DNA of 59,660 bases, filler included, from Sluysia triapertura (taxonomy: Eukaryota): assembly GCA_046118255.1 (NCBI GenBank). It is 4 parts of 4 records of this genome, joined end to end, with 100 filler letters (N's around TTAATTAATTAA, not from the genome) between each part and the next. Parts side by side here need not be neighbours in the genome. Positions count along the whole stretch, not along the records: positions 30,547 to 47,252 come from JBJNIA010198931.1; 3 more parts are not named here. One strand, written 5' to 3'. Numbering within the stretch: position 1 is the first letter of the stretch; every line of letters starts with the position of its first letter. This document shows, one piece after another, positions 38,172 through 38,582 of the stretch. The notes under the pieces are model-generated. The model did no database searches, had not been told where the DNA came from, and saw only the letters and a list, made by a program, of their open reading frames with translations. Made by a program: the position numbers and the translations under genes.

Positions 38172-38582
38172 AAGAAGGCGTCCTATTAGGTTTTATCTGC
38201 GAGAGTAAGTTACGAGAATTAAGCAATAATGTATTCAGTATTTTTCGTCAACAGCTTAATGAATTTCAATGGATAGATTAAACTAGCCCATTATGGTCTA
38301 CCTTTAGAAAATAGTTTAAGTTAGCCGATTATGGTCTGGCGTACAAATCAAAATAGTTTAATGAATTTAACGTTAAGCTAGCCTTCTTAAGGTCTAGCAA
38401 ATTAATCAATATTTTTAATTCAAAGAAAATTTAAAATAAGCACTTAAAATTTATTGGACACAAAACGTTAAAATTATACACAATAAACAACAAGGATAAT
38501 AAAAATAATAATGTTAATTACTTAATTCATCAGTAATATATTAAATTTTAAATGGAAATTAAACTAGCCGTAAAAGTCTAGT
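38172..38582 (+). repeat. Four-hairpin array, GCTAG/CTAGC variant
   Basis: Units ttaa(a/g)ctagcc-N6-8-(g)gtctag at 38278, 38316, 38373 and 38559. An inverted homologue lies at 59134-59440. Confidence 0.85.

Follow-up and report, generated by a model that had tools for sequence, protein, structure and literature searches.

The window, i.e. the whole 59,660-nucleotide stretch of DNA analysed here, comes from Sluysia triapertura (GCA_046118255.1), has a G+C content of 20-31% and contains four reading frames of at least 100 codons. An 18S fragment, three tRNA-like repeats, a Gypsy-type integrase piece and a BTB-BACK piece were identified, which points to a repeat-rich animal genome. The 18S rRNA fragment (22400-22910, minus strand) is isolated and damaged, and we take it to resemble the 18S of flatworms, specifically triclads. 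An integrase zinc-binding domain (21875-22045, Pfam E 1.4e-05) lies in a Gypsy-type remnant at 21685-22300, and a second Gypsy-type remnant spans 5619-7300, its gag-like reading having been made by eye. Further pieces are a broken BTB-BACK gene piece (20119-20690, minus strand, Pfam E 1.1e-14) and a weak Bcl-2-like exon (8840-9025, plus strand, Pfam E 0.0012). The Rfam 15 covariance models gave five matches in the window, all of them to 18S or tRNA and none in the arrays described here.

Three arrays of short bulged hairpins are found at about 32, 38 and 59 kb. They have a common layout: a leader, in which the two halves of a 7-bp inverted pair are separated by 31 nt, then three closely spaced units, a linker of about 165-190 nt and a fourth unit. 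Units of the 38-kb, 59-kb and 32-kb copies are referred to as A, B and C, respectively. The features of the arrays and their surroundings are as follows.

19029..19247, minus strand: probable fourth copy; upstream flank like that of the 59-kb copy, with the 13-mer at 19063-19075
31894..32387, minus strand: 32-kb copy, with the other outer stem; 13-mer at 32350-32362, its inverted partner at 32312-32318, units C1-C4
32202-32225, minus strand: unit C1, perfect
32160-32183, minus strand: unit C2, with TC/GA in place of CC/GG
32108-32131, minus strand: unit C3
31894-31917, minus strand: unit C4, outermost pair altered
32388-32549, minus strand: tRNA-like TG...CA element of 162 bp with A and B boxes, adjoining the 32-kb array
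35504..36854, minus strand: repeated region preceding the 38-kb leader and containing broken frames (35715-36704) and a 329-bp internal repeat
36855..36897, plus strand: first part of the 38-kb leader, ending in the 5' half of the 13-mer
36898..38148: insertion of 1,251 bp splitting the 38-kb leader, with a 3-base direct repeat at its ends
37158-37484: miniature TA-flanked inverted-repeat element inside the 1,251-bp insertion, with terminal repeats and high depth
38149..38281, plus strand: second part of the 38-kb leader, comprising a 31-nt spacer, TATTAGG (38184-38190) and the spacer to unit 1
38282-38301, plus strand: unit A1, two outer pairs broken
38320-38340, plus strand: unit A2, two T-G pairs
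38377-38398, plus strand: unit A3, perfect, with a 5-bp outer stem, a bulged T and a 4-bp inner stem
38399..38562, plus strand: AT-rich linker between A3 and A4
38563-38582, plus strand: unit A4, an outer pair altered in both arms and one inner pair broken
38602..38745: TTAA-flanked inverted-repeat element just after A4, with terminal repeats and TTAA on both sides
38750..38860, plus strand: continuation of the repeat after the TTAA-flanked element, homologous to the 59-kb copy
about 51702-51860 (minus strand) and about 57850-58012 (plus strand): further tRNA-like copies, neither with an array
59134..59503, minus strand: 59-kb copy, with the outer stem of the 38-kb type; 13-mer at 59491-59503, a shortened leader, units B1-B4
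59419-59430, minus strand: unit B1, of which the 3' arm alone survives
59379-59399, minus strand: unit B2, inner stem broken
59330-59351, minus strand: unit B3, 5' arm decayed
59134-59155, minus strand: unit B4, perfect

The initial annotation had placed four-hairpin arrays at these loci, and their geometry is borne out. The 38-kb units are where it had put them, with steps of exactly 38, 57 and 186 nt and starts that had been given four bases early; the 32-kb steps are 42, 52 and 214 nt on the minus strand as claimed, and the inverted 59-kb copy is present with steps of 40, 49 and 196 nt (about 39, 49 and 196 had been given). Its picture of uniform units is looser in reality. The full arrangement of 5-bp outer stem, CC/GG and bulged T occurs in 3 of the 12 units (A3, B4 and C1), whereas the bulged T is present in all 12, the units themselves having been partly picked by it. 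The outer stem, described as wholly replaced, differs between the two stem types at three of its five pairs and is kept at the other two, and CC/GG is not fixed, C2 having TC/GA in its place. The inner stem is 4 bp long in A3 and C1-C3. Folding of A3 is better than in any of 200 shuffles (z -2.96), and the two strands of a unit fold about equally well, the bulged base being T on one and A on the other.

The hairpin units are a real excess over chance in the window. A strict scan of the window recovered four perfect units against a shuffle mean of 0.65, namely A3, B4, C1 and a match at 31841-31861 that is at chance level (covariance model E 1.1). A relaxed scan found six units, all six inside the three arrays, compared with a mean of 0.96, a maximum of three and no clusters in 25 shuffles. 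A covariance model built from ten of the units returned only those ten below E 0.1 in the window, missing B1 and B3.

The claimed homology of the arrays holds on partly different grounds from those first offered. Homology of the 38-kb and 59-kb copies is clear from their alignment (score 188.5, 0/200 shuffles, 66% identity), and the repeat continues beyond A4: the best match of 38750..38860 among 2,950 segments is 59001-59150 on the minus strand, by the small margin of 58.0 to 56.5. The match between the 32-kb and 38-kb upstream flanks, on which the initial annotation had relied, is weak taken alone. It was reached by 3/200 shuffles over 1 kb and by 0/500 on a hand-picked 140-nt piece, and against real AT-rich DNA it falls outside the top six of 2,944 window segments. 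The relationship is instead carried by a second piece of leader. Among 5,928 window segments the best match of 36855..36897 is the 32-kb leader (32.5 versus 32.0 for the next), and, read across the insertion, both leaders consist of CCTAATA, 31 bases and TATTAGG, the stretch between the first motif and the end of unit 1 measuring 148 nt in the 38-kb copy and 149 nt in the 32-kb copy. It is this shared leader piece, displaced by 1,251 bp through the insertion, that supports the homology of the 32-kb and 38-kb copies. Direct alignment of the 59-kb and 32-kb copies was not significant (82/200 shuffles), the linkers between units 3 and 4 gave no alignment above the real AT-rich background, and the flank downstream of the 32-kb array resembles neither of the other two copies.

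Each of the three arrays is preceded by a related 13-mer, and another copy of it is found at 19063-19075, by a pattern drawn from these very sites; in the 38-kb leader it starts at 36889. The flank at 19 kb aligns with that of the 59-kb copy over 190 bp, up to an assembly gap (70% identity, E 1.6e-16), so that 19029..19247 is a probable fourth copy judged by its sequence. Its array would fall in the gap of Ns, and a weak relic lies at about 18670-18775 (1/400 shuffles). Upstream of the 19-kb and 59-kb copies there is also another kind of hairpin unit, which lacks a bulge and recurs every 34 bp (19202-19267, 59615-59645). A 12-mer common to 19758-19780 (minus strand) and 58482-58560 is inverted between the two places, each time beside a hairpin, and is at chance level.

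Pairing in the stems was assessed in ten aligned units, the other two (B1 and B3) being too worn. Paired cells make up 91.4% of 70, compared with 23-40% when the partners are slid, and four of the seven pairs change on both sides, involving 14 cells. Single units have changed as well: the inner stem of C2 reads TCTC/GAGA rather than CCTT/AAGG, and the outermost pair is altered in one unit each of the 32-kb (C4) and 38-kb (A4) arrays. The units are few (10) and related, and kinship inflates the shuffle control of the pairing counts. Since this control ignores relatedness, the counts are suggestive and do not amount to a probability. The paired changes around one unpaired T nevertheless fit selection on a folded single strand, which agrees with the structure-selected array that had been proposed. 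The further proposal of a recognition array working at these loci does not stand: identity between the 38-kb and 59-kb copies is about 66%, younger insertions are nested in the copies, and three of the broken pairs are minority letters in the family.

The history of the copies can be followed in contigs of run X1, which shares 0.59 of the words of the window, may be its own source, and was aligned to 31600-38900 at 80% likeness. X1 was the one sequencing run listed as sharing words with the window; RNA runs were absent from the listing, which has no bearing on expression. Three nested insertions are distributed over the 38-kb and 32-kb copies. Two contigs join 36897 directly to 38149, which identifies the 1,251-bp stretch as an insertion splitting the 38-kb leader; a third contig does so with other letters. 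The TTAA-flanked element, with a summed depth of 61,026 at 38634, is younger than the 38-kb copy that it sits in. At 32 kb, the tRNA-like element is flanked by a 4-bp target duplication, has a summed depth of 857,779 and is missing from five contigs that carry the empty site; it had been considered as the head of the 32-kb array and was rejected as a separate insertion. It fits a solo LTR of Helenus, an element with a tRNA-like sequence in its LTR and a 4-bp duplication that is described from animals of six phyla, flatworms going without mention in the available part of the source (PMC10886601).

Upstream of the 38-kb leader, the repeated region at 35504..36854 has a summed depth of 432-1,124, compared with about 19 for unique contigs, and possibly belongs to the element of the array. 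Its minus strand carries about 330 codons of broken frames (35715-36704) with an internal 329-bp repeat of 83% identity and many related copies, and these frames lie downstream of the array as read on the minus strand. Searches of Pfam, phages and other collections gave no relative of them, the best Atlas score of 0.81 being a lead at most.

Summed depth reaches 115,594 at C3, 5,991 at C4 and 1,584 at A2, against 13.7-21.3 for seven unique contigs, and is far lower in spacers (298 at 32023 in the 32-kb linker, 37 at 38214 in the 38-kb leader spacer); it is not a copy number, as overlapping contigs inflate it and contigs with one unit may align to a sister unit. These depths still show many related loci, more of them of the ACAAC type, with units better kept than spacers. 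Joints in the contigs (32219->32158, 32233->32201, 32148->32201, 32139->32202 and 38198->38308) record gain and loss of units with different spacers. A back-jump from 38397 to 36792 was set aside, since it looks like a misalignment of AT-rich sequence (182/500 shuffles). The eight aligned units of the 32-kb and 38-kb copies contain seven cells that are not Watson-Crick pairs. Three of these seven are covered by the 40 entries listed, beside which there are 442 others, and in all three (32115, 31911 and 38338) the majority letter (94-99.9%) restores the pair, a figure to which contigs from sister units may contribute. Both T-G pairs among the entries listed, including the one in A2 at 38338, are minority letters.

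The three arrays belong to a single dispersed repeat family with a variable number of units and are copies in a state of decay. Nested insertions, breaks specific to single copies and majority letters that restore pairs argue for decaying copies of a transposon. The copies are thus likely relics whose pieces decayed after insertion, and the hairpin shape was likely selected in their active ancestors. Beyond the dispersed, decayed and shape-conserved repeat, every further step is one that we infer.

Our preferred reading, which we hold tentatively and regard as just short of probable, is that the arrays are the non-coding control segment of a rolling-circle (Helitron-like) transposon. The protein of the element would recognise the hairpins in the single-stranded state. 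In active master elements under selection, the shape (a 5-bp stem, one unpaired base and an inner stem of 2-4 bp) would be kept while the stems changed, and duplication of units within a master would distribute a new stem type over the array. A folded single strand would be needed, since the unpaired base is kept while the stems change, and this base may act as a handle marking the strand, by analogy with the bulges read by bacterial HUH transposases. That the T-G pairs are minority letters where checked leans towards hairpins acting as DNA rather than RNA. The Helitron-like reading is favoured by the Helraiser transposase, which cleaves DNA in single-stranded form and recognises a hairpin (PMC4778049), by the internal tandem repeats often present in Helitron-like elements (PMC4067079, PMC7492417, PMC13085455) and by the bulge as handle of an HUH enzyme, TnpA-REP requiring its bulge (PMC8266576), according to the available portions of these reports.

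Markers of the known Helitron classes were sought around the arrays. The linked HUH, tyrosine-recombinase or pPolB frame that had been envisaged was not found in any of the 228 fragments of the window compared with Pfam, and neither was a Rep/helicase frame or any transposase near the arrays. The 3' hairpin of canonical Helitrons (HLE1), followed by CTRR about 11 nt on, was not found at the arrays: the 30 nt after B4 and C4 lack CTRR and a hit after A4 lies inside the TTAA-flanked element, in a test that assumes a terminal hairpin whereas the units may be internal. The 11-17-nt subterminal inverted repeats at both ends of HINE/HLE2 elements were not seen in the window copies; with respect to their 5' repeat, which lies 2-4 nt from the end and has a short inverted partner nearby, two copies have a 7-bp partner 31 nt away and the homology continues upstream of the motif. 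The inverted 13-mer, within three mismatches, is absent from the 2.3-2.5 kb downstream of the three arrays, which may be truncated copies.

The closest described relatives in organisation are the HINE/DINE-1 Helentrons such as oyster Cg_HINE. In the portions of the reports available, these are likewise non-coding dispersed repeats (PMC4067079, PMC7492417), Cg_HINE-like elements have, as the arrays do, tandem units inside the element that are preceded by a 13-nt motif and its partial inverted partner, and HINE subfamilies change in all modules, which recalls the stem types found here (HINE features drawn from PMC4067079, PMC7492417 and PMC11417382). The same portions place the inverted partner 3-22 nt away in DINE-1 and 1-12 nt away in Cg_HINE, compared with 31 nt at the arrays, and contain no report of bulged, covarying units, a feature of the arrays. 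Array homology further extends at least 35 nt upstream of the 13-mer, and no 3' inverted copy, terminal stem-loop or T-T target was seen. Paramecium Helitrons with internal satellites (PMC13085455) and Helraiser (PMC4778049) resemble the arrays in compensatory hairpins and variable tandem units; however, as far as the accessible text goes, their covarying or tested hairpin is a single terminal one, whereas the array here may be internal. Unlike Helitrons, the arrays have no TC or CTRR end that could be found and no Rep/helicase in the window. Bacterial REP/BIME sequences, read by TnpA-REP, are clustered short hairpins with a conserved bulge and strand-specific recognition as a single strand according to the part of the source available (PMC8266576). 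This is an analogy of shape only: the arrays are in an animal host, lack a conserved tetranucleotide foot and have no cognate enzyme that could be found.

From the sequence we infer that the arrays would serve a mobile element as a signal made up of clustered hairpins, each marked by a bulge. Bulge-marked hairpins recognised strand-specifically as single-stranded DNA occur at IS200/IS605 ends and in integron attC sites. An animal transposon with a REP- or attC-like code, in which the internal row of bulged-T hairpins would be loading sites for the element's own HUH or tyrosine enzyme and the outer-stem sequence a subfamily key, is an unlikely extension; if true, each of the two coexisting stem types would have a cognate protein of its own. 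Tandem repeats inside transposons, Helitron-like ones among them, are usually regarded as passengers, and a constant shape with one unpaired base amid changing stems suggests a cis-acting role. Binding could be tested directly once the protein of the element is known. As relic copies without their enzyme, the arrays are a good lead in transposon biology rather than a new system. The literature searched, which did not extend to Repbase and most subscription papers, yielded no description of such a bulged-hairpin array.

Somewhat unlikely, and first among the alternatives, is that the arrays are relics of a retroelement (an LTR, LINE or SINE body) whose hairpins, perhaps with the opposite strand and its bulged A as the one recognised, were RNA signals for packaging or for the reverse transcriptase. 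The about equal folding of both strands would allow this, a variable number of units suits a SINE body, and a 5-bp stem with a bulged A and a short upper stem recalls the coat-protein operators of RNA phages. Yet the tRNA-like neighbour is the separate 162-bp insertion, the Pol III head or tail of tRNA-derived SINEs is not part of the array, and the two other tRNA-like copies are without one. Neither a tRNA-like head nor an A-box/B-box pair was found in the leaders, and the scanned regions around the arrays contain no run of 10 A (with the 3' end undefined) such as a poly(A) tail would give. Of the features of LTR retroelements (TG...CA long terminal repeats, a primer site, a purine tract and a target duplication of 4-6 bp), a purine tract is absent in element orientation, and primer-site-like matches are loose and at chance level. 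The T-G pairs are, as stated, minority letters where tested.

Distinctly unlikely is that the units are subterminal repeats of a cut-and-paste DNA transposon, that is, binding sites in double-stranded DNA kept symmetrical by template switching from arm to arm with no need to fold. An altered binding site would alter both arms, and template switching yields multi-base compensatory changes, as stated in the available part of one report (PMC8794818). Arm copying, however, yields perfect stems and should erase the extra base, which is kept in 12/12 units of both stem types, and template switching is disfavoured on this account; single-unit changes in C2, C4 and A4 would moreover alter the presumed site. 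The 12-mer found far upstream at the 19-kb copy, which recurs in inverted orientation downstream of the 59-kb one, might possibly represent the ends of a 19/59-kb element; the comparison was made post hoc and was equalled in 12/100 shuffles. Searches around the arrays of the window revealed neither terminal inverted repeats nor a target duplication.

A multi-copy host non-coding RNA working at its loci, with a promoter-like upstream motif and four protein-binding hairpins, is very unlikely. The spacing from leader to unit 1 is conserved and folding of the 32-kb copy exceeds that of shuffles (z -3.48 and -3.09), but folding of the 38-kb region as a whole does not (z 0.08 and 0.20), breaks are specific to single copies, one leader is split by an insertion, no Rfam family matches and the repeat continues past both array ends.

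Least probable are homologous-region origins of an endogenous large DNA virus or Polinton-like element: imperfect palindromes do cluster at several loci and the region with broken frames adjoins the 38-kb copy, but nothing in the window points to the viral origin analogy that had been drawn, there being no viral or pPolB domain in it, no phage match and no homologue among 67 pattern matches in viral contigs, and the loci implied by depth are far too numerous for an integrated virus.

The pattern scans as a whole returned at least 124 metagenome loci, from 19 of 64 parts of the metagenome collection, in addition to the 67 viral ones, with no homologue among the 191; BLAST of four regions against these loci gave one 38-bp match (E 0.01), and no plasmid match was found for the 32-kb array. 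As candidate relatives the pattern loci were discarded, the 14 inspected being simple tandem repeats or single hits. A 42-bp satellite in WLWD01006004.1 (loci L067-L073) has a unit that fits the hairpin pattern; it is not homologous to the arrays, and its variants mostly alter one arm.
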